32,000 nucleotides of DNA. Origin: Candidatus Omnitrophota bacterium. GTDB lineage: Bacteria; Omnitrophota; Gorgyraeia; Zapsychrales; JANLHA01. Location of the stretch: contig OY759724.1 of assembly GCA_963662715.1 (NCBI GenBank), forward strand, positions 840,001 to 872,000, read 5' to 3'. Positions 14,386 to 29,505 of the stretch are shown here, in pieces. How positions within the stretch are numbered: position 1 is the stretch's first letter; the number at the start of each line of letters is the position of its first letter. The notes under the pieces are model-generated. The model did no database searches, was not told the DNA's origin, and saw only the letters and a list, made by a program, of their open reading frames with translations. The translations under genes and the position numbers were made by a program.

Positions 14386-14554
14386 GTGAATTTCTCCGGT
14401 TATTTGAGTTAACAATATATAAAACTTCTTGTCTCAAAGATATCAAAGATAGTCCGAGAAAAGAGGATTACTCCAAGAAATATGAAAACTTGGGCATTAA
14501 AAAGGTGAGGGTTTGAAATACTAAGGACAGGGGTTACTAACTAATATATCTAAT

Positions 14555-14583
14555 AATATAACAGGAAGCTCTTCGCTTGTCAA
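14555..14583 (-). promoter_or_regulatory. sigma70-type promoter for gene A (TTGACA-17-TGtTATATT)
   Basis: The minus strand reads TTGACA agcgaagagcttccTGT TATATT. It implies a leader of about 130-165 nt. Confidence 0.6.
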
Positions 14584-14613
14584 GTCACGCCCGGTGACGG
14601 AGGGCCGCTGCTT

Positions 14614-16059
14614 CTAAACATTTTTAATAAATGACCGGGTAAAACAATCCGCCAGCCTTCCTTTTTTTAGTTCTCCCAACAGAGCCGCGCCAAGAAGAAC
14701 AGGTATGGACAAAACAAACAAAATCAGCTCCGAAGCCCTGAAAAACCGCACTTCAAAAATATTCTTTTTCAATAATTTGATAAACCGGCCGGGCGTATAA
14801 AAAGCATAATGCATCCTTCGCCCTATCTTTTTCAGGGCCGCGTGACTGTATTTATCAGAATAGAGCTCTCCTCTGTCTGTAATATGATATCCCGGAGTTT
14901 TTTCCGCCAGTTCTCTTAAAGACGAAAACTTCTCTATCCTTAATTTATTATATGTCACCCCATCAACGCCTATTTCCTTGGCAAATTCAGGGATATAAAG
15001 CATCTCCTCCTCTGTTTCCCCGATATTGCCAAAAATAAAATAACCGTGAAAGTAAATAGGATATTGAGTCAGCACCTTAAAGGCCTCCCTGATCTTACGG
15101 GAATTAAAACCTTTATTAAACTGTTCAAGGACCCAATCATGCGGAGACTCGATCCCCACCAAAAGAGCCTTAAATCCGGCTTTAACCATTTTATCCAGCA
15201 AACGCGGATATCCGGCGATGTCGATTCTCGTCTGGGCGATGAACCTTTTTTTCAATTTGCGTGCGATAATTTCATCGCAGAGTTTCTCGGCCCTCTTTTT
15301 ATTGGCAAAGACTTCATCATCCCCGAACAAAATCACTCCGGCGGGAATACTTTCAATCTCATCCACGACAGATTTGATACTGCGCTCGGAGTATTGCCGC
15401 TTCTGTCCTAAAGGATTCAAGTTGAATGTGCAAAATTTACAATTGAACGGACATCCTCTCGCGGTTAAAACGGAATCGAACGAGAGGTTGGCCACATTAA
15501 TCCCATTCAAGGCAAGACGGTATTTCGACCGTCTTAAGCTGCGGTCCGGGGGCGGGATTTGATCTGCCGCAACAAATGGTCTGAAACCATTATGAATGAG
15601 TTCCCCTTGCTCCCGATAGGATATCCCCAATATGTCCTTACGCGGGACACCGCTTAATATGTCCTTAATCGTCATTTCCCCTTCACCCCGGACAACGATA
15701 TCAACGGTGTCGCACTGCTCCAGCAGTTCATCGGCACGCTCTGTCGCTTTATATCCTCCGATGACCAAAAGAATATCCTTCGGCAGTTTGTTGAGCAAAT
15801 CGCAAATCTGCTGGAACTGCCGGTCCCACGTGATACTCACTCCGATAAAATCAATCTTTTCCTGTCTGATAAATTCCAGCAAATTATTAACATCGCATAA
15901 TTCTTTTTCCTGCCTTAAATCAATGACCGTCACTTTATGCATATACTCCTTAGCGCTCGTAGCGACGTATTCAAGGCCAACGGGCGGATACATCCGCATG
16001 GCACTGGTAGAACTGCTTTCCGTATAAGGGTTAAGAAATAGTCCGTGCTGATATTTCAT
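14614..16059 (-). CDS. B12-binding-domain radical SAM protein
   Basis: 481 aa. The N-terminus has a Rossmann-like B12-binding region (LLVIGGYKATERADELL, DIVVRGEGE), followed by the radical-SAM motif CPFNCKFC. A hydrophobic helix sits at the C-terminus. Confidence 0.8.
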   Translation of the reverse strand: MKYQHGLFLNPYTESSSTSAMRMYPPVGLEYVATSAKEYMHKVTVIDLRQEKELCDVNNLLEFIRQEKIDFIGVSITWDRQFQQICDLLNKLPKDILLVIGGYKATERADELLEQCDTVDIVVRGEGEMTIKDILSGVPRKDILGISYREQGELIHNGFRPFVAADQIPPPDRSLRRSKYRLALNGINVANLSFDSVLTARGCPFNCKFCTFNLNPLGQKRQYSERSIKSVVDEIESIPAGVILFGDDEVFANKKRAEKLCDEIIARKLKKRFIAQTRIDIAGYPRLLDKMVKAGFKALLVGIESPHDWVLEQFNKGFNSRKIREAFKVLTQYPIYFHGYFIFGNIGETEEEMLYIPEFAKEIGVDGVTYNKLRIEKFSSLRELAEKTPGYHITDRGELYSDKYSHAALKKIGRRMHYAFYTPGRFIKLLKKNIFEVRFFRASELILFVLSIPVLLGAALLGELKKGRLADCFTRSFIKNV

Positions 16060-16247: not shown

Positions 16248-16652
16248 TCAAGGTTGCAACAAATATTCTGCGGCAGCTTTTAAAAATGTCATGACCGCCA
16301 GGACGGCGCAGTGATTAAAATCAGCCGGCAATCCGTCAAGCCGGTCAAGAATCATTTTGGGCGAGATAGCCAAAGCCTCTTCCAGTCTTTTTCCCGAAAC
16401 AAATTGTGCCGCAACGGAACCGCAGGCACGCGTGGAAACACAGCCATCCGTATAAAAACTTGCCTGCTCAATAACCCCCTCTTTAATATAAAGATAAAAT
16501 TCCATGGAATCCCCGCAGGCCCCTTTCATAAAAGCTGAACTCGTAAAATCGTTCATTCTGGTATAGAGAGGAGGATTCCGGGCCAAATCCACAATCGCCC
16601 GGGGATATACGGACACATCCCTCTCAACAGGCGATTCATTAAAATCGTTCAT
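16248..16652 (-). CDS. NifU/IscU-like Fe-S cluster scaffold (N-terminal domain type)
   Basis: 134 aa. The conserved Cys residues are present in GACGDSMEF, TDGCVSTRACGS and NHCAVLA. An AAGGAG SD is present. Confidence 0.8.
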   Translation of the reverse strand: MNDFNESPVERDVSVYPRAIVDLARNPPLYTRMNDFTSSAFMKGACGDSMEFYLYIKEGVIEQASFYTDGCVSTRACGSVAAQFVSGKRLEEALAISPKMILDRLDGLPADFNHCAVLAVMTFLKAAAEYLLQP

Positions 16653-16805: not shown

Positions 16806-17294
16806 TTATTTTTGCGGATTTTTTTTTTGCTTCATTTCAAAATCAATTCTCTTTAAAAAGGGCAAATAATCTATAATAAGCTTCCCCTCCAGGTGGTCGA
16901 TCTCATGCTGAAGCACCGTCGCCATAAAGTCCTTGGCCTTGATCTCCTGAACCGCCCCCCTTTCATTGAGCCCTTTGACTATTATTTCATAACTGCGCAG
17001 GACTTTCACCTGCATATCCGGCACACTCAAACACCCTTCTTCTAACATACTAGTCCCTTTTTTATGAACTATCTCGGGATTGGCTAAAAAGAGCGCCCCT
17101 TCCCCTATATCAACAACAATCATCTGCTCGGCAATACCAACCTGCGGGGCGGCTAATCCTACACCTTTAAAATAATGCATTGTCGACAACATCTGCCGGG
17201 AAAGAGTCTGCTCCCTTTCTGTGATCCCCTTAACCGGCTGACATTTCATCCGCAAAACTTCCTCGGGATAGGTCTTGATCTGCAAAAGATTCAT
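16806..17294 (-). CDS. def: peptide deformylase
   Basis: 162 aa with all three signature motifs: GVGLAAPQVG, EGCLSVP and HEIDHLEG. Its ATG overlaps the stop of the upstream radical SAM gene by 4 nt. Confidence 0.93.
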   Translation of the reverse strand: MNLLQIKTYPEEVLRMKCQPVKGITEREQTLSRQMLSTMHYFKGVGLAAPQVGIAEQMIVVDIGEGALFLANPEIVHKKGTSMLEEGCLSVPDMQVKVLRSYEIIVKGLNERGAVQEIKAKDFMATVLQHEIDHLEGKLIIDYLPFLKRIDFEMKQKKNPQK

Positions 17295-18070
17295 AACACT
17301 TTGCCTCTTCTCTTTAAAGTATCACCGTCACTCAACGGGGCAACAGTCTTCTTCTCTGCTTTATATACAAAAACAGTGCTGACGCCACGGAAATAAATCC
17401 CCACCCTATCCAGTTCAGCCTCGGATAAAGGGTTGACCCGGCAGGGCCTCAGCGGTGTGTTGATCTGGACTTCGTCCGGACGAATGGACTTGACAATCTG
17501 CGCGATATCTTCCGCACAGGCTTTATTCTCTCCGATAAACATAATCTGCAAGGCCAATTTTCCCTGATAGACATTCCTGAACGATTTGAGACCGGAGATA
17601 ATATCCGCAAGCTTCACTGTCTTAAAAGGCGCATTGACCGAAGAAAAAACGTCTTGTGTGGGAGCATCAAGTTTCGCGACCACCAGATCCGCTGAGGACA
17701 GATCCTCCTGCACGTCTTTTCTCGGCAATAAAGAGGAATTCGTTATAACGGCGACCTTCTCTTTTCTGGTCTGTTTGACAGCTCTGATCATCTCTCCCAG
17801 GTTAGCGGCCAGGGTCGGTTCCCCGGCTCCGGAAAATGTAACGGTATCTATCGTCAGAGGAGGCAGGGAATTCAACTCTTTAATAATATCCTCACAATCG
17901 ATAAAATGATGTCTTTCGTCCGTTAAAAGCCCGGTCTTTCCGACCTGGCAGTAGATACAGTCATAACTGCAGACCTTTCTTCCTTTGGAGACAGGATCTA
18001 TCCCTAACGAACGCCCCAGCCGCCAGGACGGTACGGGGCCGTAAATATATCTAAATTTTTTGACAGTCAT
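17291..18070 (-). CDS. radical SAM protein (COG0731-like, YGPVPS(W/R)RLGRSLG N-terminus)
   Basis: 259 aa. It carries CSYDCIYC (CxxxCxxC) and the SAM-binding-like motif FSGAGEPT. It overlaps the 3' end of the Mrp gene by 20 nt. Confidence 0.8.
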
Positions 18071-18890
18071 GACCTAAATGTTTGATGATCTTTTCAACGA
18101 TCTTGCTCATGACACAGGATGACGGATCGTTTCTCGTTAACTGAACATAAGGCTGCCCCGTGTCGCTTTGCCTGACAATTTGGGGATTTACAGGGATCTG
18201 CCCTAAAAAAGGAACGTTCAGATCCTCAGCAGCTTCCCTCCCGCCCCCTTCTCCGAATAATTCAATCGGTTTCTGGCAATGCGGGCAGGCAAATCCGCTC
18301 ATATTTTCAATGATACCGACCAGCGGAACACCTATGGACTTTGCAAAAGCCACGCTCTTGCGGGAATCTAAAATGGCGACATCCTGAGGCGTCGTCACAA
18401 TAACGGCTCCGCTGATATCCGGGATGAGCTGGCAGACACTCAAAGGTTCATCCCCTGTTCCCGGAGGAGAATCAATGACCAGATAATCCAGAGACCCCCA
18501 GTTCACATCACTCAAAAATTGTTTGATCGTGGCCATCTTAAGAGGCCCCCGCCAGATAACGGGCTGATCCTGATGCTCCAGCAGCATCGCCATGCTGACC
18601 GCTTTAAGATTAGGCAGAACCGCCAAAGCCTCTATGCCTTTTTCCGACCCTGCCAGCCTGACATCCTCAACCCCCAGCATTTTGGCGATATTCGGGCCGT
18701 GCATATCCACGTCCAAAATACCGACCTGCTTCCCCCGCAGAGCGAGTTCATAAGCGAGGTTAACGGCGACCGTGGTCTTTCCGACCCCGCCTTTACCGCT
18801 CATGACAATAAGTTTATGCCGTATTTTCTGCAGCCGTTCTTGAAGGCGGCGGTCCTGCAGAATTTTTTCCTGTTCTTCAGCCTTTTGCAT
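18051..18890 (-). CDS. Mrp/NBP35 (ApbC-like) Fe-S cluster carrier ATPase
   Basis: 279 aa. It has the deviant Walker A motif [10 protein letters not shown], the CPHC motif and DSPPGTGD. A good SD (AAGGAAAGGAA) is present. Confidence 0.88.
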
Positions 18891-18984
18891 GGTTCCTTTC
18901 CTTTTTTCAAATATGTTTTCGCCCTAAAGCTGCGGCAACGTCAGTTCTAAAGATATACTCCAGTCTTTACCGGGATAATCCGCG

Positions 18985-19845
18985 TTATTGGCTCTGCTGT
19001 TTTATGGTTTCCCATATGGCCGTCACGTCTTTTTTAGCCCTGCTGTCACCGCCCTCAATAATCGTTTTTCCCCGCACCATGGCATGCACAACGGCTTTAT
19101 CAAAACCGATCTTTCCGACAACCTCTATCCCCTGGCTTTTACAGGCCTGCAGAATCAGGCCGGACATATCCGGATTTAAATCATATTTATTAACGACCAC
19201 CTTAGGCGGAATGCCGAAATGTCTGGCCACTTCGATAACTCTCAAAGCATCATGCCAGCCGGACAAAGTAGGCTCAGTGACCACCAGAGCAAAATCCACT
19301 CCGGATAACGAAGCGATAACCGGACAGCCTATCCCCGGAGACCCGTCAATGATAATCCAATCGCAATTTTTCTGTTCGGCCAGCTCTTTGGCTTTCTTCC
19401 TGACCAGGCTCACCAGCTTCCCGGAATTTTCTTCCGCGATTCCCAATTTTGCATGGACCATCGGTCCGAAACGTGACTCCGACACAAACCATTCCCCGGC
19501 GATATTCTCCTTCATCTCTATCGCCCCGACAGGACAGACATGATGACAAAATGCGCACCCCTCACAGGAAACAGGATCAATTTGGAAATCCTTGTCGATA
19601 GCGTCAAAACGGCATATCTCCCGGCACTGCCCGCATTGAGCGCAGAGGGCCTTGTCCAGGAAAGCCGTAACTCCGCTTTTAAACTCCTGTCTCTGAAGGA
19701 TATCCGGCTGCAGCAATAAATGCAGGTCCGCGGCATCAACGTCGCAATCCACCATAACTTTATTATCGGCGAGCGCCGCCAAACTCGCCGTAAGGACCGT
19801 TTTGCCTGTGCCGCCTTTTCCGCTGATCACAACAATTTGTTTCAT
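18985..19845 (-). CDS. MinD/ParA-type P-loop ATPase with 2x[4Fe-4S] ferredoxin insert
   Basis: I chose the internal start MKQIVVISGKGGTGKT because of the AGGAACGAGG SD. It carries CAQCGQCREICRFDAI and CEGCAFCHHVCPVGAI. The longer ORF start at 19905 would overlap the upstream gene. Confidence 0.85.
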   Translation of the reverse strand: MKQIVVISGKGGTGKTVLTASLAALADNKVMVDCDVDAADLHLLLQPDILQRQEFKSGVTAFLDKALCAQCGQCREICRFDAIDKDFQIDPVSCEGCAFCHHVCPVGAIEMKENIAGEWFVSESRFGPMVHAKLGIAEENSGKLVSLVRKKAKELAEQKNCDWIIIDGSPGIGCPVIASLSGVDFALVVTEPTLSGWHDALRVIEVARHFGIPPKVVVNKYDLNPDMSGLILQACKSQGIEVVGKIGFDKAVVHAMVRGKTIIEGGDSRAKKDVTAIWETIKQQSQ

Positions 19846-19867
19846 AAGACCTCGTTCCTGAAAGACA

Positions 19868-21217
19868 TCACATTTTACCGTAAGCATCCTGCGCGGCCTG
19901 AACAAGAGGGTACACGGTCGGGGCGCTGGTCAAATAGGGATGCGTGGCCACCTGCAGGGTTTCTAATTCCGTAAAGGACATGCGCTTCTGAATGGCAAGC
20001 CCGATGACGTTGATCAGCTGGGCGCACGACATCCCGCAGCTGACCTGTCCTCCCAAGATAATCCCTGACTGTTTGGAAAAAATCAGTTTGACCTTTCCCT
20101 GGCTGGCTCCCGGGAGAGATGCCGGATGCTTATCAATGCCGTCTGCTGTCCCGACGACGATCTCAAACCCTTCTCTGCGGGCCGTCTGCTCCGTCAGCCC
20201 CGCGGACCCCAGCACCAGACCGTCAATATATGTGGAATAAATCGCAATGGTGCCCTTATTCTCACGCACGACTTTGATTTGATAAAGATTAGCCCCGGCG
20301 ATTCTGGCTTCCGCCGTGGCCGTTGAGGCCAGCATAACAGGGATCGCCTTCCTCGTATAAAAATCCCTTTTGCAGGAACAGTCTCCCACGGCAAAAATAT
20401 CCGGATCCACAGTCGTTCGCATATACTCATCAACCAGGACACCCTTGCAACTGCCCAGCTCCAGTCCCGCTTCTTCGGCTAAATGCACATTCGGCCTGGA
20501 ACCTATGCCAAGGATAACGGCATCGGCCGGCTGTTCCTGACCGTTCGAGAAACAGACCTTTTCCACTTTCTCCTGCCCGGCTATCTCTGCAATGCGCGTG
20601 TTCGTTAAAACCTGGACGCCTTTCTCTTTTAACCGGGCTTCCGCCATTTGGGAGAACTCGTCATCAAAGGAATTGGCGAGCAGATGCGGCAGCATCTCCA
20701 CGAGACTGACGTTGATCCCTTTTCTTTTAGACAATTCATCCGCGAATTCAACACCGATAAATCCTCCGCCTATAATAATCACATCCTTACACTGCTGAAT
20801 CTGGCTGACCGCTTCTTTTAAATACCCCATTTCTTTGTGAATGGGATAGACGCCTTTCTTGTCGATTCCCTTTATCGGCAAAATAACCGGCGTCGACCCC
20901 ATGGCCAGAATCAATTTTTCGTAATGATATTGATCCCCCTGTTCGGTCTGAACGCATTTTTCCCCACGCTGAACAGACTTCGCCTTGTCAATCACGACAT
21001 GAATATGATTCTTGTCCAATGAAGCCGTCCCCAGGGCATTATCCTGAGGATGATCCAGGCTCGCAAACATATAAGGGATACCGCAGGGAATGACACCCTC
21101 CGCAATGTCCTTCATAACGACAATGTCTTTATCCGGATAATATTTTTTTGCTGTAATAGCGCTGATGATCCCGGCCGGGCCGCCCCCGATGACTAAAACA
21201 TCTGTCTTCTTTTCCAT
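19868..21217 (-). CDS. FAD-dependent pyridine nucleotide-disulfide oxidoreductase (CoA-disulfide reductase / NADH oxidase-like)
   Basis: 449 aa. It has the FAD-binding motif VLVIGGGPAG, the NAD(P)-binding motif VIIIGGGFIGVEFA and FAVGDC. A single redox Cys sits in an IPCGIPY context, as in Nox/CoADR. Confidence 0.85.
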   Translation of the reverse strand: MEKKTDVLVIGGGPAGIISAITAKKYYPDKDIVVMKDIAEGVIPCGIPYMFASLDHPQDNALGTASLDKNHIHVVIDKAKSVQRGEKCVQTEQGDQYHYEKLILAMGSTPVILPIKGIDKKGVYPIHKEMGYLKEAVSQIQQCKDVIIIGGGFIGVEFADELSKRKGINVSLVEMLPHLLANSFDDEFSQMAEARLKEKGVQVLTNTRIAEIAGQEKVEKVCFSNGQEQPADAVILGIGSRPNVHLAEEAGLELGSCKGVLVDEYMRTTVDPDIFAVGDCSCKRDFYTRKAIPVMLASTATAEARIAGANLYQIKVVRENKGTIAIYSTYIDGLVLGSAGLTEQTARREGFEIVVGTADGIDKHPASLPGASQGKVKLIFSKQSGIILGGQVSCGMSCAQLINVIGLAIQKRMSFTELETLQVATHPYLTSAPTVYPLVQAAQDAYGKM

Positions 21218-21226
21218 ACTCTCCCC

Positions 21227-22066
21227 CTATCTTTGCTTGATTTTTTCTTCGATCTTTTCAAACAGCTGCCGAAATTTCTCTTTATATTCAGGACATGTTT
21301 CAACAACGGTTTCACCCCGCGAATAACCTTCGGCTATTTTTCTGGAAAAAGGGATCCGCAGGTAAACAGGAATGTGTTCTTCTTGACAATACTGTTCCGT
21401 CCGTTCATCCCCCAAATCCGCGCGATTGATAACCACCCCGAAAGGGATGTTCAGTTTGCGTAAAACCTCTACAGCCAATATCAAATCATTGAGCCCGAAA
21501 GGGGTCGGTTCCGTGACCAGGAGACAAAAATCGCTGATCCTGATGGCCTCAATAACAGGGCAGGACGTTCCCGGCGGCGCATCAATGATCACGGTTCTTG
21601 TGGAATTGATATTTTCTTTAACGGCCCGGATAAGCGGCGGGGCCATGGCCTGGCCGATATGCAGCTTTCCGTGCACAAACTGCAGTCCACGGGCCTCCCC
21701 GAATTCAACGACGCCGATCTCCTTGCCGACTTCCTGAATGGCTTTCTGGGGACAAAAATAAGAACAGGACCCGCACCCATGGCAAAGTTCCGGGAAGACC
21801 AGGACCCGGTCTTTTAAGACGGCGATCGCATTGTAGGCGCAGACTTTCTGGCAGCGTCCGCAGTGCCCGCAAAGGTTCTCTTGGATTTGCGGAACGGGGA
21901 TGAAGACGGGGTCTTGATGCCCTATGGCCGGTTTTATAAAAATATGGGCATTGGGTTCTTCAACGTCGCAGTCCAGAATCTGCACCTGAGGAAGCGACAA
22001 GGCCAGGCTTGTTGCCACCGTGGTCTTTCCTGTGCCGCCTTTTCCGCTGGCCACTGAAATAATCAT
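21227..22066 (-). CDS. MinD/ParA-type P-loop ATPase with 2x[4Fe-4S] ferredoxin insert (second copy)
   Basis: I chose the internal start MIISVASGKGGTGKT, 5 nt after the methyltransferase stop. It carries CGHCGRCQKVCAYNAI and CHGCGSCSYFCPQKAI. Confidence 0.85.
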   Translation of the reverse strand: MIISVASGKGGTGKTTVATSLALSLPQVQILDCDVEEPNAHIFIKPAIGHQDPVFIPVPQIQENLCGHCGRCQKVCAYNAIAVLKDRVLVFPELCHGCGSCSYFCPQKAIQEVGKEIGVVEFGEARGLQFVHGKLHIGQAMAPPLIRAVKENINSTRTVIIDAPPGTSCPVIEAIRISDFCLLVTEPTPFGLNDLILAVEVLRKLNIPFGVVINRADLGDERTEQYCQEEHIPVYLRIPFSRKIAEGYSRGETVVETCPEYKEKFRQLFEKIEEKIKQR

Positions 22067-22071
22067 ACCGT

Positions 22072-22683
22072 TTAACAGCCCCTTTGACAGAAAATCAAGA
22101 GCTCCTGGCAATCTGTGCCATAGACCTTGACTTGATAATTTTTATCCGATAAATATTTTTCCACATCCTTTAAGTGACATTGTCCGCGCGAATGGTGCCG
22201 GCCTTCGCTGGCATGAATCCGGCCGATAAGCTCAAAACCTTTCTGGTTAAAATCACTTAAAATAATTTTTCCTTTCCGGGAAACCACCCGAATCAATTCA
22301 TCAACAACTTTAAAAGGATGATCCAGGTGATGAATAAAATTGATGGCAAACACGATGTCAAAACTCTCGTCAGCGAACTGAAGATGTTCCGCGTCGCCCA
22401 TGACAAAGCTTACCTGAGACTCCAGCCCGGCATACTCAATATTCATACGGGCAAACCTCTGCTCCTCGTCAGAGATGTCCACTGTTGTCAAATGATGACC
22501 CTTTTGAGCCAAGGCAAGCGTAAAATATCCTTTGCCGGTCCCGAGTTCTAATATCCGTCCTTCAATCGGTTGAGATTTTTCAATAATAAAATCTCTTTCC
22601 CGGATGACGTCATATCCGAATTCCCGGAACAGCCGGATCCGCTCCTGATAAATTTTATGATTCTCTGTCATCTGTTCTTTCAT
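22072..22683 (-). CDS. class I SAM-dependent methyltransferase
   Basis: 203 aa. Motif I is ILELGTGKGYF, and a post-I acidic residue and FDIVFAINFIHHL are present. Its ATG overlaps the upstream stop (ATGA). Confidence 0.8.
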   Translation of the reverse strand: MKEQMTENHKIYQERIRLFREFGYDVIRERDFIIEKSQPIEGRILELGTGKGYFTLALAQKGHHLTTVDISDEEQRFARMNIEYAGLESQVSFVMGDAEHLQFADESFDIVFAINFIHHLDHPFKVVDELIRVVSRKGKIILSDFNQKGFELIGRIHASEGRHHSRGQCHLKDVEKYLSDKNYQVKVYGTDCQELLIFCQRGC

Positions 22684-22868
22684 GACTCCCTCGTCATCTT
22701 ACGGCCGCAGGCCGGACAAGCTACCGTATTGCAGGGAAAGCCTCTCTTATGAGGGACCCTGGTCCCGCAGTTGGGACACACACAATTTCCTCCCTGGCCG
22801 GCCCCTCCTCTTCCCCGGCCGCGGCCTTGTCCTGAATTATTGGGTCCGAGTCCGTTTCCTCCGGGCAT
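22680..22868 (-). CDS. small Gly/Arg-rich protein with C-terminal CPxCG zinc ribbon (N-terminus DUF5320-like)
   Basis: 62 aa: MPGGNGLGPNNSGQGRGRGRGG...CVCPNCG...CPACGRK. Its position in the operon is tight. Confidence 0.65.
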   Translation of the reverse strand: MPGGNGLGPNNSGQGRGRGRGGAGQGGNCVCPNCGTRVPHKRGFPCNTVACPACGRKMTRES

Positions 22869-22880
22869 GAGACACCCCTT

Positions 22881-23249
22881 TCAAGCATTTAATCCTGATT
22901 TCTCTTCCGTATTAGGTCCCTTGCTCACTTTAAGCTCACCGTTTTTAAATTTCTCCAGAGCATCTTTGACAGAACCCGAGACATTGACAACAACATCAAT
23001 CCCGGCCGCCTCTAATGTCTGGGAGGCATTAGGCCCCACCTTGCCTGTGATGACAACCTTGGCCTGTTGCTCAGCCACAAGCTGTCCGGATTGAACGCCG
23101 ACACCGCCCATCCCGGACACATTTTCATTCTCCACCGCTTCAAATTCCGAAGTCTCGGTATCAATGAAAATAAAATACTGACAGCGTCCGAAACGCTGAT
23201 CAACGTTTGCCGCTAAATCTTTCCCCTCCGATGTTATACAAATTCTCAT
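22881..23249 (-). CDS. NifX/NifB-like dinitrogenase FeMo-cofactor-binding-domain protein (PF02579-type, ORP-like)
   Basis: I chose the ATG at 23249 because of the GAGAGGTGA SD. The sequence MRICITSEGKDLAANVDQRFGRCQYFIFID...VVITGKVGPNASQTLEAAGIDV fits this family. An alternative GTG at 23258 overlaps the upstream stop. Confidence 0.8.
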   Translation of the reverse strand: MRICITSEGKDLAANVDQRFGRCQYFIFIDTETSEFEAVENENVSGMGGVGVQSGQLVAEQQAKVVITGKVGPNASQTLEAAGIDVVVNVSGSVKDALEKFKNGELKVSKGPNTEEKSGLNA

Positions 23250-23254
23250 TCCCG

Positions 23255-23662
23255 TCACCTCTCTTCATGTTCGCAGTTATCTTCATGGGGATGATCACAT
23301 ATGGTCTTGTCCAACCCATATCCTTTGCCCGCCCCTGGCTTGCAAAGGCTTTCTCCCCCCTGTAATGTCCCGGCCTGCAGCTGCCCGACAACCTCGCCGA
23401 TCGTTCCCTGTATCCCCACAATAGTCTGTATGCCGTACTCGGCAAAAAAACCGGTGGCGCGCATCCCCATTCCGCCGGCAATAATACATTGAACGCCTTG
23501 TTCGTGCAAAAACTGCGGGATTAACCCCGGCTGATGTCCCGGATTATCAATCGTTTTCTGACCCGTCACCTTCCCGTCTTCCATATCGACAATGGTAAAA
23601 GACGGGCATCGTCCGAAATGAGCGGAGACAGAATCATGATCTGTTGCAATAGCGACTTTCAA
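23255..23662 (-). CDS. NifX/NifB-like FeMo-cofactor-binding-domain protein with Cys/His-rich tail
   Basis: A TTG start is preceded by AGGAGGtttattt. The sequence is MKVAIATDHDSVSAHFGRCPSFTIVD...CIIAGGMGMRATGFFAEYGIQ, with the tail CDHPHEDNCEHEER. Confidence 0.8.
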   Translation of the reverse strand: MKVAIATDHDSVSAHFGRCPSFTIVDMEDGKVTGQKTIDNPGHQPGLIPQFLHEQGVQCIIAGGMGMRATGFFAEYGIQTIVGIQGTIGEVVGQLQAGTLQGGESLCKPGAGKGYGLDKTICDHPHEDNCEHEER

Positions 23663-23692
23663 AATAAACCTCCTGTCAAAAATCCCAAAGGC

Positions 23693-23723
23693 AGATGGGA
23701 GTAAGCCGGACCTACTCCCATCT
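23693..23723 (-). repeat. 11-bp perfect-stem hairpin inside the operon (attenuator, processing site or weak terminator)
   Basis: AGATGGGAGTA-agccggacc-TACTCCCATCT. On the minus strand it is followed by gcctttgggattttt. Confidence 0.5.
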
Positions 23724-23749
23724 ATAAGTTATAATCGTTCATTTTCACC

Positions 23750-24070
23750 TTATGCCGTGTTAGATTCCAATTCTTTGATGCGGGCATTCATGGCTTCGAT
23801 CCCCTCCTGCATGGCTCTGACTTGGTCTCTTAAGATTTCCGCTTCCTCTTTGTCAGAAGCATACGGCGCTCCGTAGGGATAAGAGCCGTTGCGTCTCATG
23901 CCCCAACCCCGGCCGCGGCCGAACCCCCGTCCCATACCTCGATGAAAACGAAAGCCCCCCGCCGGCATCGGGTTGGCAAAACCCGGCATATTGTACCCGG
24001 AACAGTATCCTGCCCCGCGTCCTGTTCTTGACCCCATTCCCATAGGGCCGGTTCTGTCTCCTCCTGGCAT
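23750..24070 (-). CDS. DUF5320-family protein (Gly/Arg-rich N-terminus, coiled-coil C-terminus)
   Basis: The ATG at 24070 is preceded by GGAGGTGAtacaa. The sequence is MPGGDRTGPMGMGSRTGRGAGYCSG...GRGFGRGRGWG...EAEILRDQVRAMQEGIEAMNARIKELE. Confidence 0.75.
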   Translation of the reverse strand: MPGGDRTGPMGMGSRTGRGAGYCSGYNMPGFANPMPAGGFRFHRGMGRGFGRGRGWGMRRNGSYPYGAPYASDKEEAEILRDQVRAMQEGIEAMNARIKELESNTA

Positions 24071-24118
24071 TTGTATCACCTCCTTTGACTGAATTCCGCC
24101 TTTGCGGCAAGATCCATA

Positions 24119-25777
24119 TTATCCAATACCTAACCCCAGCAACCCGGGATTGACCAAAAGCACAATCCCCAGCAACAGCATGATGATTCCCCCGATAAAC
24201 TTAATAATTTCCATCTGCCTTTGTGTTATTTTTCGGGCTTTGAGCGTATAAACGAATATAGAAACAATCACGAGCAAAGGCAGCACATAAACCAAATTAT
24301 AATACATGAGATAAACATAATAACTCGTTGTCAGCTTTAACCCTTTGCCGGCTAATATCCCCGTATAAATAATCGGGAAGCCTGCGGTGCAGGGCAATTC
24401 GACCAAAGACGCCAGTGCCGCCAGTCCCAGGGAAGATGTGATTAAAAGCGGGAACGACCCTTTCTGGATAATTTCCTTCATTTGGTCCATCTTCCTCATC
24501 AAAGGGTCCTTATGGCTGTCCTGGATCATCAGCGTAATCCCCTTGCGGAAGAAAAACAGCTCTTTACAGTTTATGAGCCCGGCCAAAATAGCCATGACGG
24601 CGAGGCCTATGCGCAAGGGGTTAATGAAACTGATATACTTGAAAACGTTCAGCCACAGGGCCATGAACATGAAATAAAACACATAGACCATGGCCACAAA
24701 ACTCAAGGCCACGGCATAAAGCCTCTTACGCGAATCTGATGTCGAGATTAACAGGGCCAGCAGGCACGTCAGGACAAACATGTTACAGGGGTTAAAACCG
24801 TCCACCAGGGCAATGAGAAAAGTAAACAGCGGCAGCGGCATATCATAACCGGTCTTCTCGAGGAAGTCGGGCGTAACATTTCTTGCAAAAAAGAAAAACG
24901 TGACCAGCGAGGCTAAAGAGACCATCGCGATGATAAAATCACGGATCCTTCCGCGGAACTCGAACCGGAGGGCCGCGCCTTTCGGTGTTTTCCTGACCCG
25001 GAAGAATGTGAAGGAAACCGCCAGGATCATCAGGCTCACGAGCATGAAAAACATCTTCTTACCCATGGAATCAGGCTCCGGCTTTTCAATAACAAGCGGT
25101 TCGCCGTTCCACTGCAAACGCCAATGTCCTATCTTAACGGCATATTCAAAGTCCAGCTGGGCCCGGGAAATCACCACGGGTTCCGGCTCAACCTTTTCGA
25201 ACCGGACATCCTGCAGTATTTTCGACAAATCATCTTCCAGCAGAATTCTCTTTAATAACTTGTCGTCCCCGCCTTCCCCGTGAATCAGCACCCGGTCTTT
25301 TGTCCATATCTTGGGCGCCCCGGGAAGCCGTGTCAAATCAAGCTCTGCCAACGGAACGGCGCTTCCGTCCCATTTCGGGAAGGCGTTCGGCTCAAGGTCT
25401 TTAATCGTTTTAGCCGCAGCCAGCACCTGGTACCGTCCGAGAGTGCGGTTATCCTGGCTAAAAATTAAAAACGGGACCCCGGGACGTTCTTCGCCTATAT
25501 AGTTTTTAAAATATTGATCCTTGACTTCCAGATTCTCCTCTCGTGAACGGTAAATCTCATATTCAAATAAAATCAGACGGGGATGATTCCTTGTGGCCTC
25601 TACGAAAAGAACCGGGTCGGTCACCGCGCAGTTACCGCAGCCAATCCCGGTGATATAAACCGCGCACAGGGGTTCTTCAGGTCTTTCCTCCGAGCCGAAG
25701 GCCAAAGAGTTCGTAAAAAATACTGCGCTGAAGCATAGAAATAAACACATAAAAATCTTTGCAGCTTTTTGCATCAT
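24119..25777 (-). CDS. membrane protein: periplasmic thioredoxin-like CxxC domain fused to DsbD/CcdA-like transmembrane domain
   Basis: I chose the internal start MMQKAAKIFMCLFLCFSAVFFTNSLAFG (GGAGGTG SD, 5 nt after the MBL stop). It has a GCGNC motif, and the TM domain carries GFNPCNMFVL and ELPCTAGFPI. Confidence 0.65.
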   Translation of the reverse strand: MMQKAAKIFMCLFLCFSAVFFTNSLAFGSEERPEEPLCAVYITGIGCGNCAVTDPVLFVEATRNHPRLILFEYEIYRSREENLEVKDQYFKNYIGEERPGVPFLIFSQDNRTLGRYQVLAAAKTIKDLEPNAFPKWDGSAVPLAELDLTRLPGAPKIWTKDRVLIHGEGGDDKLLKRILLEDDLSKILQDVRFEKVEPEPVVISRAQLDFEYAVKIGHWRLQWNGEPLVIEKPEPDSMGKKMFFMLVSLMILAVSFTFFRVRKTPKGAALRFEFRGRIRDFIIAMVSLASLVTFFFFARNVTPDFLEKTGYDMPLPLFTFLIALVDGFNPCNMFVLTCLLALLISTSDSRKRLYAVALSFVAMVYVFYFMFMALWLNVFKYISFINPLRIGLAVMAILAGLINCKELFFFRKGITLMIQDSHKDPLMRKMDQMKEIIQKGSFPLLITSSLGLAALASLVELPCTAGFPIIYTGILAGKGLKLTTSYYVYLMYYNLVYVLPLLVIVSIFVYTLKARKITQRQMEIIKFIGGIIMLLLGIVLLVNPGLLGLGIG

Positions 25778-25782
25778 TCCTA

Positions 25783-26496
25783 TTACACCTCCATCTCTTC
25801 TCCCACTTTTAATTCTAAACAGTTTTCCTGATAAGCCTCCCGGAACAAATGCTCGGCCTCTGTTCCGCAGCAATGCGTCGGCCCCACCTTTTGAATTCCC
25901 AGCTTAGAGAAATGCTGAATGATGGCCTGAATCCTCCGCTGGGTTTTATCCATCAGGTGAAAACCGCCCAATACGGCATAAACCTGTCTGTCCGTAAAAG
26001 TCTGCCGGACCCTTTCCACCATATCCAGGATATGCGGATGGGCGCATCCGGTAATGACCGTGAGCCCCTTCTCCGTATCTATGACCACAGCCTGTTCCGA
26101 AATATTCTTTTCCTTATACGTCCCGACCATTTCTCCGGTAACATAAATATTATCTTTAATCCTGCAAAAACCGCTGTTTTCCCTGACGTGCCCCTTAAGG
26201 GATACGATTCGCTGCTTTAACTCTTTGCTGAAACCCGGACAAATGTAAACATCAAGCCCGGGACGTCTTTTTAAGACTTCCTCCAGTCCTCCCGTATGAT
26301 CCCAATGATCATGAGAAATAACAGCCGCTTCCAGAAGATCCATATCTACGCCCAGCTCCTCTAAATTCCTGGAGAGATACAGCGCCTTTTCTCCCGTGTC
26401 AAACAGCACCTGTCCGCTGACAAGACAGGAAAACCCCCACCCGGTGGCAAGGTCTTTCCGGACAGCATGGCTGTTGAAAAGTATCTGTATTTTCAT
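25783..26496 (-). CDS. MBL-fold metallo-hydrolase (COG1237-like)
   Basis: 237 aa. It carries GWGFSCLV...VLFDTG and HDHWDHTGG. Confidence 0.8.
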   Translation of the reverse strand: MKIQILFNSHAVRKDLATGWGFSCLVSGQVLFDTGEKALYLSRNLEELGVDMDLLEAAVISHDHWDHTGGLEEVLKRRPGLDVYICPGFSKELKQRIVSLKGHVRENSGFCRIKDNIYVTGEMVGTYKEKNISEQAVVIDTEKGLTVITGCAHPHILDMVERVRQTFTDRQVYAVLGGFHLMDKTQRRIQAIIQHFSKLGIQKVGPTHCCGTEAEHLFREAYQENCLELKVGEEMEV

Positions 26497-26501
26497 GGTT
26501 T

Positions 26502-27362
26502 TTACCCCTTCATGAGAACAACATCACCGACGTGAGCGTTGGCATGCCGGGCAATTAACGGACATTTGGCCCTGAAAAGATAAAAGATCTCTCTTTTCTC
26601 ATCATTTAACGCCTCATAATTGCCCTGCCCCTTGCTGATGACCATATCGGCGCCCTTAAACAATTTTACAAATTCCGGCGAACAGTACTTCAGGATCGTT
26701 CCGGGGGCGTCCACCCCGCTGGAGATCAGCCGAGTCCTTCCTTCAAGCCCGCAGACACGGGCGTCTTCAAGAAGGGCATCGTTAATAACAGGTTTGTCTC
26801 TTACGGCAAAGATAATCTCTTTGTCTTCCGGGATTTCTTCAATGAACACCCGGTCAAAAACAATTTCCCCGGCGTTATCCGCCAGATAAAGGATTTGCCT
26901 GGCCTGTGATAATGCTTTTTTAAACTCGGCATAAGCAAATACCGTCCTGCCGACACTCGCAAACTCTTCTTGGAAAAGTTTTTCAATTTCTTCCTCTATA
27001 TTCAAAGTATTCTTAGCGGCATAATCAATGACATTCCCGGCGATCGCTATTTCAACAGCCGTAAGCAACCGGTCCGTTGAATTAAGGACTTTCTCTTTCA
27101 ATTTGGGATACAACTCAAGCGCCATCTTATTGCTGCGATCTTTGACCTGTTTATAAAAATCTCTTTCCCCCATCTGTTTTTCCATCACTTTGTGGATCAT
27201 CCGGGCCATTTCCGGAGGCGTGCACCCCAAAGAAAAGTCCGGAATGATTTTGGCGACTTCATCCACAATTTTTTTGTGCCGGATCTCGTTGCCGGTCACC
27301 ATATGGGCCATTTCAATGGCCTGTTTCATAAAACAAGGTATACATTCTAAATATGTCCTCAT
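26502..27362 (-). CDS. DUF89 (ARMT1-like damage-control phosphatase) family protein
   Basis: MRTYLECIPCFMKQA, LADNAGEIVFD and KGQGNYEAL are family hallmarks. The start is uncertain (27362, 27368 or 27398). I chose 27362 because of the AAGGA SD spacing. Confidence 0.75.
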   Translation of the reverse strand: MRTYLECIPCFMKQAIEMAHMVTGNEIRHKKIVDEVAKIIPDFSLGCTPPEMARMIHKVMEKQMGERDFYKQVKDRSNKMALELYPKLKEKVLNSTDRLLTAVEIAIAGNVIDYAAKNTLNIEEEIEKLFQEEFASVGRTVFAYAEFKKALSQARQILYLADNAGEIVFDRVFIEEIPEDKEIIFAVRDKPVINDALLEDARVCGLEGRTRLISSGVDAPGTILKYCSPEFVKLFKGADMVISKGQGNYEALNDEKREIFYLFRAKCPLIARHANAHVGDVVLMKG

Positions 27363-27382
27363 GCTCATCCTTTCCTTCATTT

Positions 27383-28117
27383 TCATTGTGTAAAACAAAC
27401 TCTTTGAAGTCCCCGCCAGTAAGCCACCCCGGCGATCGTGACGCCGTAAAAAACAACCTTTTGGGAAGATCCGGCCGCAGCGACAATTTCATCAATACTC
27501 CCGTTAACCACCGTGGACCCCGTGGCTAAAACAATGTCTGCCCATTGGACGGCATCTTTCATATCTTTTTGCCCGTCTAAAATTGGGACATCATATTTCA
27601 CCTGCCCGATATTCCCGGTATCCAGATCCAGGATCTTTAAGGAATAATGTTGAGCAAAGGCTTCGGCCAAGGCCGGCTGAAAGCCCACAAAGGTGATATT
27701 TTTTATTCCGGGGAAATCCTGCTGTACGTATTCCACACACTGCCTGGCACATTCTTGCGGCTGTTGGTCTTTACAATGAACCGTATTATGGACAAACCCC
27801 CCGTACTTTGACAGGGCATTAATGGTCGCTACCAGCAAGGCTCTTCGATAATTATTGTTAAGCGGCATACGGAACAATTCTGCTACCCGGCCTTCAAAAC
27901 CTCCGTACATATCCGTGAAAGCGTGACCTAAACAGCCTCTGAAATCCGCTTCCATAATCTTTTCCCGGCCCTTGAGCAGGGGAAAATCATCGCGTTCCGG
28001 GTTGCCGATGGCTTCCTGAGCAGAAAGGACCTTGGCCCGGACGAGGATATTTTCTTCGAACAGATCTTCCTCTTTAAGGTACGACTCGACCTTGGCTTTT
28101 GCTGATGCCAGAATCAC
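27383..28117 (-). CDS. DUF4213/DUF364 (putative heavy-metal chelation, Rossmann-like) protein
   Basis: A GTG start is preceded by AGGGGG. ITFVGFQPALAEAF and DIVLATGSTVVNGSIDEI are typical of DUF364. Confidence 0.7.
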   Translation of the reverse strand: MILASAKAKVESYLKEEDLFEENILVRAKVLSAQEAIGNPERDDFPLLKGREKIMEADFRGCLGHAFTDMYGGFEGRVAELFRMPLNNNYRRALLVATINALSKYGGFVHNTVHCKDQQPQECARQCVEYVQQDFPGIKNITFVGFQPALAEAFAQHYSLKILDLDTGNIGQVKYDVPILDGQKDMKDAVQWADIVLATGSTVVNGSIDEIVAAAGSSQKVVFYGVTIAGVAYWRGLQRVCFTQ

Positions 28118-28134
28118 GGGGCCCCCTATTTCTT

Positions 28135-28153
28135 AATGAAAACCATTTTCATT
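28135..28153. promoter_or_regulatory. 8-3-8 inverted repeat AATGAAAA-cca-TTTTCATT (Fur-box-like half sites) in the Fur/DUF364 spacer
   Basis: Read directly. It shares the AATGAAAA half site with the Fur box at 28651..28664. It is AT-rich and has no U-run, so it is unlikely to be a terminator. Confidence 0.4.
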
Positions 28154-28168
28154 TAATACCAAAAAATT

Positions 28169-28630
28169 TTATTTCTCCCGGCACCTGTTACAGTAACCGT
28201 AAAATTGGATAAGATGGTCTGTTATCTGAAAATCATATTTCGCGGAAAGCCCTTTCTCTGTCCTTTGCAGAAACTGGACCTCATCTTTCATGAAATCACT
28301 GTAATCAATAATCTTCGAACATTTCTTGCAGACCAGATGATGATGGTGCCCTTTCTTGCCGTATTCATCAGCGAGTTCGTATTTTGCTTTCCCGTGACCA
28401 AATTCAAATTTCACAACCATACCCATGTCGACCAGCAACTCAAGGTTTCTGTAAACTGTCGTCAAACCGATATTCGGATAAAACTTGTGAACAGCCAGAT
28501 AAATATCTTCTGCGCTTAAATGCTCGGCGGTTTTCCCCAAGACATCCATAATGGATTGGCGGGGCTTTGTCATACGGTAACCGCAGACTTTAATTTGTCC
28601 TCTCCACTGATGCTGACAATGTCTTCTCAT
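28169..28630 (-). CDS. Fur-family metalloregulator (Fur1)
   Basis: 153 aa. It has a winged-helix N-terminal region (GYRMTKPRQSIMDVL...TVYRNLELL), a His cluster plus CxxC (HHHHLVCKKC), and a second CxxC (YCNRC). Confidence 0.88.
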   Translation of the reverse strand: MRRHCQHQWRGQIKVCGYRMTKPRQSIMDVLGKTAEHLSAEDIYLAVHKFYPNIGLTTVYRNLELLVDMGMVVKFEFGHGKAKYELADEYGKKGHHHHLVCKKCSKIIDYSDFMKDEVQFLQRTEKGLSAKYDFQITDHLIQFYGYCNRCREK

Positions 28631-28650
28631 TTCAGGCCTCTCTTATTGGG

Positions 28651-28664
28651 AATGATTTTCATTA
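28651..28664. promoter_or_regulatory. near-canonical Fur box overlapping the Fur1 transcription start region
   Basis: The minus strand reads TAATGAAAATCATT. The core of the classical consensus is TAATGATAATCATT, so there is one mismatch. The box lies immediately downstream of the predicted -10. Confidence 0.65.
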
Positions 28665-28666: not shown

Positions 28667-28695
28667 AAAATAAAACATTTTCGGCCGAATGTCAA
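28667..28695 (-). promoter_or_regulatory. sigma70-type promoter for Fur1 operon (TTGACA-17-TATTTT)
   Basis: The minus strand reads TTGACA ttcggccgaaaatgttt TATTTT. Confidence 0.5.
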
Positions 28696-28891
28696 CCTTA
28701 ATTTCTTACTCTTGCTCAAATAAGCGCGTTCGTTCTTAGCTCCATCAACGTCTCCTGCCGCCAATTGTTTCAATTTAGCGTCGGGATCACTTGTGATATT
28801 TAAATTTTTCCAACATGCCGGGAAATTTCCTAACGGCATAATCATAGCGGGGTTGAATAATTTTGCTTCCCCCGACTCCCTATAGGGATGG

Positions 28892-28946
28892 GAAAAAGCA
28901 ACCCCGGGGAGATGTCACGGCATTGTGTCATGTCTCCCCGGGGTTG
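28892..28946 (-). terminator. strong rho-independent terminator after the ferritin-like gene
   Basis: The minus strand reads CAACCCCGGGGAGA-(20 nt)-TCTCCCCGGGGTTG followed by CTTTTTCCC. The 14-bp stem is a perfect match. Confidence 0.85.
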
Positions 28947-28953: not shown

Positions 28954-29505
28954 TTATTTAAGAAACTTTGATACAAACGGCGATGTCTCTCCCCGGCGCA
29001 GAAAATGGCCGGAAGGGCCTTCTCCAAGAAATTCGGAAAACCACGACTCATGCTCAATCTCTTCATTTAAAATAGCAAGCGCCAAGTCATAGGTCCTGTG
29101 GTCTTTGCCCGCAGTCATATTGCAGATTTCAGTATATCCCCGCACCGCACATCGTTCAGCATCCACCAGGACTTTAAGTATATCCATGGCATTCTCCGGA
29201 TTCTTAGGAAGATTCGCCGGGGGACAAGCCGAAAGATCATGAAATTCTTTCATGCAGTTCGGGAGTGTATCCCCTAGCTTATAAATACGCGGCATTAAGG
29301 CCTCAAAATGATTCCGGTCCTCAATACGCGCGGTTTCGGCAATCTCCTTAATTCCCTCCCCCTCAAGTCCGATAAGATTAGCACGCAGTATCGTGTAGTA
29401 ATAATACGTGGTCAGCTCCGCGGAGGCATTTTTAATCAATAAATTTAACAGTCTGTCCAGATCAACCCCTGATTTCTTAACCATTTCAATTGCAACTTTG
29501 GCCAT
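28954..29505 (-). CDS. ferritin-like / DPS-like (DPSL-type) protein
   Basis: 183 aa. The four-helix-bundle ferroxidase-type residues are present (ELTTYYYY, ARIEDRNHFE, ERCAVRGY, NEEIEHESW). An AAAGGAG SD is present. Confidence 0.75.
   Translation of the reverse strand: MAKVAIEMVKKSGVDLDRLLNLLIKNASAELTTYYYYTILRANLIGLEGEGIKEIAETARIEDRNHFEALMPRIYKLGDTLPNCMKEFHDLSACPPANLPKNPENAMDILKVLVDAERCAVRGYTEICNMTAGKDHRTYDLALAILNEEIEHESWFSEFLGEGPSGHFLRRGETSPFVSKFLK

Follow-up and report, generated by a model that had tools for sequence, protein, structure and literature searches.

The orange protein (ORP) complex of anaerobes has been known for more than 10 years and its biochemical role is unresolved; cell division, iron-sulfur (Fe-S) maturation, and the binding of a molybdenum-copper (Mo-Cu) cluster have each been proposed. 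A second system that can serve for comparison is the sufABCDSE operon of Escherichia coli, a Fur-repressed stress operon for Fe-S assembly. Here, we analyze a 32,000-nucleotide (nt) stretch of a Candidatus Omnitrophota genome (assembly GCA_963662715.1, contig OY759724.1, positions 840,001 to 872,000; "the window" always means this whole stretch), in which 16 co-directional minus-strand genes run from a gene for a Fur-family regulator, Fur1 (28630), down to the peptide deformylase gene def (16806), or 16-17 genes if an adjacent IscU-like gene is included. On balance, we think it likely that this block is one Fur-repressed, sigma70-transcribed operon, which would encode an iron-starvation-inducible cluster-trafficking system.

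The best described ORP genes are orp1/orp2 of Desulfovibrio vulgaris Hildenborough (DVU2103-DVU2109), where a five-protein complex has been described (PMC6345978) and where expression is switched on only at very low redox potential by OrpR, an Fe-S-containing activator (PMC8359166). In vitro, aconitase and Orp3/4 can receive Fe-S clusters from MrpORP, and the fused and unfused forms of Mrp and Di-Nase are intermixed in the family tree (PMC6345978). The block resembles these operons in that the genes are clustered and anaerobe-associated, and in that both sets include an ORP homolog, two MinD-type ATPases with 2x[4Fe-4S] domains (Orp3/Orp4), an Mrp/NBP35 protein, and a further NifX-like protein.

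Predicted promoter and operators at the head of the block

Four features define the head of the block:

28667..28695, minus strand: sigma70-type promoter TTGACA-17-TATTTT, 10 of 12 consensus matches
28645..28663, minus strand: predicted Fur box 1, AATGAAAATCATTCCCAAT on the minus strand, abutting the -10 element and covering the likely transcription start
28169..28630, minus strand: Fur1, Fur-family regulator of 153 amino acids (aa); PF01475, 113 bits
28135..28153, minus strand: predicted Fur box 2, palindrome AATGAAAATGGTTTTCATT, behind the stop of fur and ahead of the start of DUF364, with one mismatch to the search pattern

Fur box 1 is followed by a Shine-Dalgarno sequence and then by the ATG of Fur1. 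The Fur-box pattern was found at two sites in the window, compared with 0.09 expected, and both sites are at the head of the block. Scanning the window for sigma54 promoters (TGGCAC-N5-TTGC) returned nine matches, compared with 13 expected, none of them ahead of a block gene; no enhancer-binding protein was found in the window and no DUF134 gene in the block.

The same layout occurs ahead of Fur1 orthologs in other genomes. All 10 related loci tested match AATGATAATCATTATCATT at 15-18 of 19 positions, ~30-40 nt before the Fur start, compared with a 99th percentile of 14/19 in random 230-nt windows. An alignment of 15 upstream regions (this window and 14 loci) gave the arrangement CTTGACA-N17-TATATT-GATAATGAAAATCATTATCAAT-AAGGAGG-ATG, complete in 13 of the 15; the exceptions are locus L164, where the box lies farther upstream, and L021, which is without TTGACA at the conserved spacing. 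The aligned Fur-box consensus, GATAATGAAAATCATTATC, is one base away from the E. coli Fur consensus, GATAATGATAATCATTATC. A second operator just after fur recurs in L081 and L087. An earlier note on this DNA had proposed Fur-type rather than sigma54 control, and a promoter and Fur operator conserved across phyla, together with the missing sigma54 promoter, bear this out; we regard the predicted Fur control of the block as well supported.

Among NCBIfam models, Fur1 scores best with the Bacillus-type Fur (123 bits vs. 84 for PerR), all scores being below the equivalog cut-offs, and its sequence carries HHHH and two CxxC motifs (CKKC and CNRC).

ORP-type genes

Five genes of the block are of ORP type:

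23255..23662, minus strand: NifX-like protein A (NifXa), 135 aa, with a Cys/His-rich tail; PF02579, 75 bits
22881..23249, minus strand: NifX-like protein B (NifXb), ORP homolog; PF02579, 84 bits
21227..22066, minus strand: MinD-type P-loop ATPase with an inserted 2x[4Fe-4S] ferredoxin domain, Orp3/Orp4-like; CbiA/ParA and Fer4
18985..19845, minus strand: second MinD-type ATPase with a 2x[4Fe-4S] insert; CbiA/ParA and Fer4, two Cys motifs
18051..18890, minus strand: Mrp/NBP35 Fe-S carrier ATPase; PF10609, 320 bits, CPHC motif

Among solved structures, D. gigas ORP (PDB 2WFB; 72 bits, E = 5e-19, over the full length) is nearest to NifXb, and the PDB relatives of NifXa are TM1816-type proteins. 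NifXa also matches the MrpORP model (NF041136) with 98.5 bits at positions 265-360, and Mrp matches positions 1-253 of the 365 in the same model with 365 bits, below the cut-off of 450 bits. We read NifXa as a free-standing version of the Di-Nase domain at the C-terminus of MrpORP and Mrp as the counterpart of the N-terminal domain of MrpORP, the MrpORP fusion being apparently split into two genes here. The ATPase at 21227-22066 carries the motifs GKGGTGKT, CxxCxxCxxxC, and CxxCxxCxxxCP. Because 2WFB is nearest to NifXb, the MrpORP model matches both Mrp and NifXa, and there are two MinD-Fer4 proteins, the NifX-like, MinD-[4Fe-4S], and Mrp genes are of ORP type, as had been suggested before, and by sequence the block encodes counterparts of four of the five ORP-complex proteins (Orp3, Orp4, Orp8, and Orp9; none was assigned for Orp5).

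Related loci in other genomes

Related loci were collected with three anchors: DUF364 in species-representative genomes, the CxxC membrane protein of the block in metagenomes, and Fur1 orthologs. Fifteen loci are Fur-headed, and 14 of these are independent, L087 and L163 being near-duplicates; they are named as Planctomycetales, Omnitrophota (Ca. Aceula), Caldiserica, Nitrospirae (GCA_014859105.1), WOR-3 (GCA_001303805.1), and several metagenomes. The NifX pair is present in 13 of the 14 (L104 has a single NifX gene) and MinD-Fer4 in 11 (the contig of L166 ends after the first one). The other genes recur at lower rates: DUF89 and the metallo-beta-lactamase-fold (MBL) protein in 10, the methyltransferase in nine, the CxxC membrane protein in seven, DUF364 in six or seven, the CoADR-like flavoprotein in four, Mrp and the radical S-adenosylmethionine (SAM) protein in three each, and def in one. 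All five Fur1 orthologs that were sampled (80%, 75%, 67%, 65%, and 61% identity), among them one from Nitrospirae and one from WOR-3, precede DUF5320-NifX-NifX-(methyltransferase)-MinD genes, and DUF5320 directly follows Fur in L163, L164, L165, and L166.

The position of the DUF(364)-DUF89-MBL-membrane protein module is not fixed. It directly follows fur in this window, L081, L084, and L162, and it comes after the MinD genes in L001, L002, L004, L087/L163, L098, and L146. That the module shifts while its linkage and the Fur head are kept argues for functional coupling. The conserved core is Fur-(DUF5320)-NifX-NifX-MinD-MinD, with accessory genes that recur variably and in shuffled order inside the Fur-headed unit. 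The earlier note had made co-occurrence in other genomes a check of its proposal, and DUF89, MBL, the membrane protein, DUF364, the methyltransferase, the CoADR-like enzyme, and the radical SAM protein do join ORP-type genes elsewhere, in rearranged orders. Judged from these gene neighborhoods, the arrangement is a widespread operon type and not unique to this genome.

Related clusters also carry ferredoxin, thioredoxin, CobW-FeS, CDF, and ABC-3 genes. A TauE/SafE-type permease adjoins DUF364 in L001, L002, L004, L162, and L163 and is not found in this window; in the same five loci, a small AAA_21-like ATPase and a second methyltransferase recur. Within the Fur-headed ORP cluster of the Nitrospirae genome, L164 encodes (14059-15300) a CDF transporter with a C-terminal NifX-like domain (PF02579, 25.3 bits, just below the gathering score), a fusion suggestive of a connection between NifX-like domains and the transport of divalent metals.

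Probable limits of the transcription unit

Three features bear on where the unit begins, ends, or may be interrupted:

28891..28946, minus strand: intrinsic terminator after dps, a GC-rich stem of at least 14 pairs followed by GCUUUUU; upstream boundary of the unit
23692..23724, minus strand: perfect 15-bp hairpin within the 87-nt gap between DUF5320 and NifXa; z = -3.0
16248..16652, minus strand: IscU/NifU_N-like scaffold, outside the block as first delimited; PF01592, 76 bits

The dps terminator has a fold energy of -42.8 kcal/mol over a 96-nt stretch (z = -5.0). From Fur1 to def, the intergenic gaps are 51, 20, 5, 5, 48, 87, 5, 12, -4, 5, 9, 22, 94, -20, and -4 nt, computed with the most plausible start codons; the starts of Fur1 (153 aa), DUF364 (244 aa, GTG), and the membrane protein (552 aa) are those of public gene calls with 100% identity and coverage. 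The coordinates of the open reading frames (ORFs) agree with the co-directional run and the overlaps described earlier (ATGA at 22680-22683 and 17291-17294, and 20 nt at 18051-18070), and the description of the gaps as mostly 5-22 nt holds for most of them and fails for four (51, 48, 87, and 94 nt). Since every large ORF in these 32 kb is on the minus strand, a shared direction is in itself weak evidence, and it is tight spacing and conserved synteny that count. The intergenic gaps inside the block yielded no coding-strand promoter-like site, and the GC content of the block does not set it apart from its flanks.

The hairpin at 23692-23724 is not a canonical terminator because its U-run is not adjacent to the stem; it may possibly be an attenuator, a processing site, or an RNA stabilizer between two gene modules. 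It sits exactly at the junction of two modules that are ordered differently in other genomes, and L081 has no gap equivalent to it. Downstream, no convincing terminator was found in the 153-nt gap after def, and IscU-like genes recur in or beside related clusters (L005, L049, L063, and L162); for these two reasons, the unit probably extends past def through the IscU-like gene.

Several neighboring features lie outside the unit. Upstream are genes for an archaeal-type Dps (28954-29505, minus strand; NF009990, 321 bits) and for a PerR-like Fur paralog (29627-30067, minus strand; top NCBIfam model PerR, 105 bits). A TTACTATATAGTAA palindrome is contained in a 29-bp promoter-like site (30104-30076) ahead of the PerR-like gene, and a TAGTAATTATTACTA palindrome precedes dps; both differ from the Fur1 boxes, a layout that suggests two Fur-family regulators with separate operators side by side. 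On the other flank, a gene for a B12-binding radical SAM protein (14614-16059) lies between the IscU-like gene and a group at 5878-14415 (minus strand), which consists of a 1249-aa protein without a family match, itself preceded by a strong promoter-like site (14583-14555; 11 of 12 matches, with TG), and then of an AcrB-type RND pump (553 bits) and an outer-membrane efflux protein. A c-di-GMP-I-GGC riboswitch aptamer (RF03167; 1759-1836, minus strand; 61.5 bits vs. a gathering score of 59, E = 1e-11) lies downstream of a 1238-aa gene and would precede any gene below position 1759.

Accessory genes

Ten further genes accompany the regulator and the ORP-type genes:

27383..28117, minus strand: DUF364-family protein, 244 aa, GTG start, divergent subfamily; PF04016, 47 bits vs. 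a cut-off of 23
26502..27362, minus strand: DUF89/ARMT1-like metal-dependent phosphatase; PF01937, 239 bits, DNAGE motif
25783..26496, minus strand: MBL protein, 237 aa, COG1237-type; PF12706 and PF00753, HDHWDH motif
24119..25777, minus strand: CxxC membrane protein, 552 aa; AlphaFold2 model, pLDDT 76
23750..24070, minus strand: DUF5320 protein, N-terminus G/R-rich, C-terminus predicted as a coiled coil; PF17253, 94 bits
22680..22868, minus strand: G/R-rich protein, 62 aa, six cysteines in a zinc-ribbon-like layout; zinc-ribbon matches sub-threshold only
22072..22683, minus strand: class I SAM methyltransferase; PF08241, 84 bits, its start overlapping the preceding stop (ATGA)
19868..21217, minus strand: CoADR/Nox-family flavoprotein with a single active-site Cys (PCGIPY); PF07992 (Pyr_redox_2), 205 bits
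17291..18070, minus strand: small radical SAM protein, CxxxCxxC, uncharacterized subfamily; PF04055, 49 bits
16806..17294, minus strand: peptide deformylase (def); TIGR00079, 148 bits vs. a cut-off of 104

Profile searches with Pfam and NCBIfam upheld the family assignments proposed earlier, with one failure, the label "DsbD-like" for the membrane protein, which has no profile support; only its thioredoxin-fold CxxC domain stands. Neither Pfam nor NCBIfam gave a match to this protein, and none of 38 family members matched a DsbD model even at E<=1, so on profile evidence DsbD/CcdA membership was rejected. The predicted structure combines a signal or anchor helix with three domains, of which one is extracytoplasmic and has a thioredoxin fold with the CxxC motif, one is beta-rich, and one is polytopic. 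Across the 38 sequences, C47xxC50 of the thioredoxin-fold domain and NPC331, C404, and PC463TAGFP of the polytopic domain are invariant. With Foldseek, the N-terminal domain aligns to thioredoxins at target-normalized TM-scores of 0.6-0.7, and a search of the PDB by sequence or fold returned matches to the thioredoxin domain only and no solved membrane homolog. The Pro-Cys motifs and the thioredoxin-fold CxxC domain recall DsbD/CcdA transporters, a likeness that we treat as resemblance only. The family is large, occurs mostly in Omnitrophota, and is without a Pfam model; it is ORP-linked in about eight of 27 well-flanked loci. A paralog that is 64% identical (P0138) is encoded elsewhere on the window's contig.

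The DUF364 match spans only the C-terminal Rossmann-like part of the protein, and Pfam detected no DUF4213 N-terminal domain. Residues H114, C115, C123, and C241 are invariant in the subfamily, whose profile reaches only 34 bits against the solved DUF364 structure (PDB 3NPG); the His-Cys...Cys insertion and the C-terminal Cys of the subfamily are missing from 3NPG. The DUF89 protein scores 188 bits on the NCBIfam equivalog NF040824 (cut-off 440), and the MBL protein has 7DCK (160 bits), TM1679, and 2P4Z as PDB relatives. No NCBIfam equivalog model was reached by the SAM methyltransferase. The CoADR-like flavoprotein belongs to the superfamily of CoA-disulfide reductase (CoADR) (215 bits on NF007123 vs. 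a cut-off of 458), with NoxA-3, CoA-persulfide reductase, and CoADR as its nearest structures.

Orthologs of the 62-aa zinc-ribbon protein take the same position in L084, L087/L163, L164, and L165. Both this protein and the DUF5320 protein start with MPGG(D/N)xxGP followed by a Gly/Arg-rich stretch, which suggests a common module; the DUF5320 profile itself gave no match to the 62-aa protein. The radical SAM protein is most similar in NCBIfam to MoaA and a tungsten-cofactor maturase (~45 bits, far below cut-off). Its gene is linked to Mrp, def, or the membrane protein in L004, L083, and L084, and the pair of radical SAM gene and def is kept in L004 and L083.

A model for the operon and its alternatives

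The model that we favor has four steps, of which the first two rest on sequence and conservation and the last two on inference. First, transcription would start from TTGACA-17-TATTTT, with a near-canonical 19-bp Fur box over the start and a second box before the structural genes; because the first box covers the start site, metal-loaded Fur1 would block initiation and possibly read-through as well. Second, a fall in intracellular iron would release the operon from Fur1. Third, the ORP ATPases and carriers, Mrp, and the IscU-like scaffold would assemble, hold, and deliver metal-sulfur clusters, most likely Fe-S clusters, with heterometal molybdenum/tungsten-sulfur (Mo/W-S) clusters possible where DUF364 is present. 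Fourth, the CoADR-like enzyme and the extracytoplasmic CxxC protein may keep thiols or persulfides reduced, or supply sulfide, while DUF364, DUF89, MBL, and the methyltransferase may carry out a metal or small-molecule step. The logic would be analogous to that of the Fur-repressed E. coli suf operon. We hold the regulatory and structural part of this model with high confidence. The specific function, Fe-S handling at low iron, is a tentative assignment that could well be wrong; Fe-S is favored because MrpORP transfers Fe-S clusters in vitro, because an IscU-like gene is adjacent here and in four other loci, and because of the partners of related clusters.

Several points weigh against this model. 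In Fur1, an Asp follows the first CxxC, and Asp rather than Glu at this site is the PerR-like state; iron is the putative signal of Fur1. If Fur1 is a classical repressor, the logic of the block is probably the opposite of that in D. vulgaris (derepression at low iron vs. activation at low redox potential). Further, the block contains no cysteine desulfurase gene, the variability of the accessory genes makes a single fixed pathway unlikely, and the four gaps of 48-94 nt and the 15-bp hairpin leave room for internal transcript boundaries. The DUF364 subfamily is linked elsewhere to molybdate transport, and the ORP of D. gigas, as cited in PMC6345978, binds a Mo-Cu-S cluster, [S2MoS2CuS2MoS2], and not an Fe-S cluster.

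The last two points lead to the main rival, Mo/W-sulfur handling, which we consider unlikely. DUF364 would take molybdate or tungstate or their thio-forms, the prevalent species in sulfidic habitats; a Mo/W-S heterometal cluster would reside on the ORP and NifX-like proteins and be processed by the radical SAM protein and the MinD-Fer4 ATPases, and Fur control would reflect only the iron demand of the machinery. The D. gigas cluster fits this proposal, as do the similarity, weak as it is, of the radical SAM protein to MoaA and the tungsten-cofactor maturase and the gene neighbors of DUF364: orthologs with 41-49% identity mostly adjoin, over dozens of loci, modA (TIGR01256, 104 bits vs. a cut-off of 62.5), modB-like permeases, a ModE-domain regulator, MoCF_biosynth, XdhC, or SsuA-like ABC genes, and in Methanococcus maripaludis the DUF364 gene is part of the modABC operon and shows cofitness with nifH (bioRxiv 10.1101/2024.03.05.583561). 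However, DUF364 is optional, being found in just six or seven of the 14 Fur-headed loci compared with 13 for the NifX pair and 11 for MinD-Fer4, and the operator is a canonical iron-Fur box. Mo/W handling is further weakened because the window has no Mo/W transporter, because 147 kb of related loci contain no molybdenum cofactor (Moco) riboswitch, and because the partners in related clusters are divalent-cation systems (CDF, ABC-3, and CobW-FeS). An Rfam scan of the window and six related loci found no Moco or other metal riboswitch, the sole match being the c-di-GMP riboswitch. A binding protein in L081, considered as a tungstate or molybdate link, was rejected since it is of the PstS family, not ModA or TupA.

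It is improbable that two functions share one regulator, with DUF364-(TauE)-DUF89-MBL-methyltransferase-membrane protein making and exporting a metallophore and the ORP genes serving a separate Fe-S function. Chelator synthesis does classically belong to Fur regulons, and the module shifts as a block relative to the ORP genes, with a TauE-type permease between DUF364 and DUF89 in L001, L002, L004, and L162. One DUF364 enzyme is a SAM-cyclizing methyl-azetidine-carboxylate synthase (PMC12930334), and a metal-chelation role for DUF364 has been proposed from the first structure and genome context (PMC2954201). But the DUF364 subfamily here is divergent, with 34 bits against the solved member and an extra His/Cys insertion; DUF89 is a phosphatase family; and the window has neither a TauE gene nor recognizable siderophore synthetases or receptor and uptake genes. 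Mere adjacency, with Fur1 as a general iron regulator that autoregulates only itself ahead of unrelated units, is consistent with the minus-strand coding of the whole 32-kb window, the gaps of 51, 48, 87, and 94 nt, the strong hairpin, and the housekeeping-Fur-like spread of Fur1 homologs (60-86% identical in many lineages), but we give it little credence given that Fur-NifX-NifX-MinD linkage recurs across 15 Fur1-ortholog loci from at least five lineages, that accessory modules relocate and still remain inside the unit, that a second Fur box precedes the first structural gene, and that the block's intergenic gaps hold no coding-strand promoter-like site.

Significance

We found no description in the searchable literature of a Fur-headed ORP operon, of its conserved operator, or of the partners that recur with it, namely DUF364 and the DUF89-MBL-CxxC membrane protein set. 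Nor did the literature on DUF5320, COG1433, COG1149, COG1237, DUF134, DUF89, or PDB 7DCK bear on this cluster. The ORP complex is already known, as are the families of the components; the Fur-headed arrangement, the operator, and the partner set appear to be new. A Fur promoter and operator ahead of the ORP core in several anaerobic lineages make iron availability a concrete condition under which ORP function can be probed, and predict that regulation would run counter to redox activation as in D. vulgaris. Comparing the loci also yields recurrent partner families for joint study: DUF89, the COG1237-type MBL, the unclassified CxxC membrane protein family, DUF364, and DUF5320.

A broader, joint reading, which we offer as speculation and rather doubt as a whole, is that ORP complexes would be the core of a widespread, iron-starvation-induced system for metal-sulfur cluster salvage and trafficking in anaerobes, that the Fur-headed form would stand as a regulatory class of its own, an alternative to the sigma54/OrpR and DUF134-associated forms, and that the DUF89-MBL-CxxC membrane protein and DUF364 modules would couple trafficking to a thiol, small-molecule, or Mo/W step. 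If true, this reading would provide the ORP system with a physiological role open to testing.

Comparison with known systems

The E. coli suf operon is alike in placing Fe-S genes (here, the IscU-like scaffold, the Mrp carrier, and the ATPases) behind a promoter overlapped by a Fur box. It differs in its components: homologs of SufB/C/D/S/E and a cysteine desulfurase are missing from the block, the ATPases of the block are MinD-ferredoxin fusions, and its first gene is that of the regulator. The mod-linked DUF364 proteins, for instance MMP_RS02675 in the modABC operon of M. maripaludis, are of the same subfamily (41-49% identity) with the same invariant His and Cys residues. They sit with molybdate ABC transport and Moco genes, whereas DUF364 in the window lies directly behind fur in an ORP operon.

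The orp genes of D. vulgaris form two divergent operons under sigma54, OrpR, and IHF, whereas the block is one co-directional unit with a sigma70 promoter and a Fur operator. MrpORP is a fusion in D. vulgaris, while Mrp and the NifX-like (Di-Nase) protein are separate genes in the block, which is also without the DUF134 gene. Conversely, the block has some 10 genes more than the D. vulgaris set, namely those for DUF364, DUF89, MBL, the CxxC membrane protein, DUF5320, the zinc-ribbon protein, the methyltransferase, the CoADR-like enzyme, the radical SAM protein, and def.

The DUF134-associated ORP-type clusters of metagenome-assembled genomes of Victivallales and Spirochaetes, Clostridium genomes, and metagenome contigs share the NifX-NifX-MinD-MinD core, and often DUF5320, Mrp, the CxxC membrane protein family, thioredoxin, and the CoADR-like enzyme as well. 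They carry DUF134, a putative DNA-binding protein, in place of a Fur gene or Fur box; links to CDF, CobW-FeS, ferredoxin, and ABC genes are commoner among them, and links to DUF89 and MBL are rarer. A DUF134 gene is present in none of the 15 Fur loci, compared with 14 of the 21 other ORP-type loci (Fisher p = 6e-5; p = 4e-4 after near-duplicates were collapsed). Among ORP-type loci, Fur and DUF134 are thus mutually exclusive, a pattern that reads as a regulator swap.

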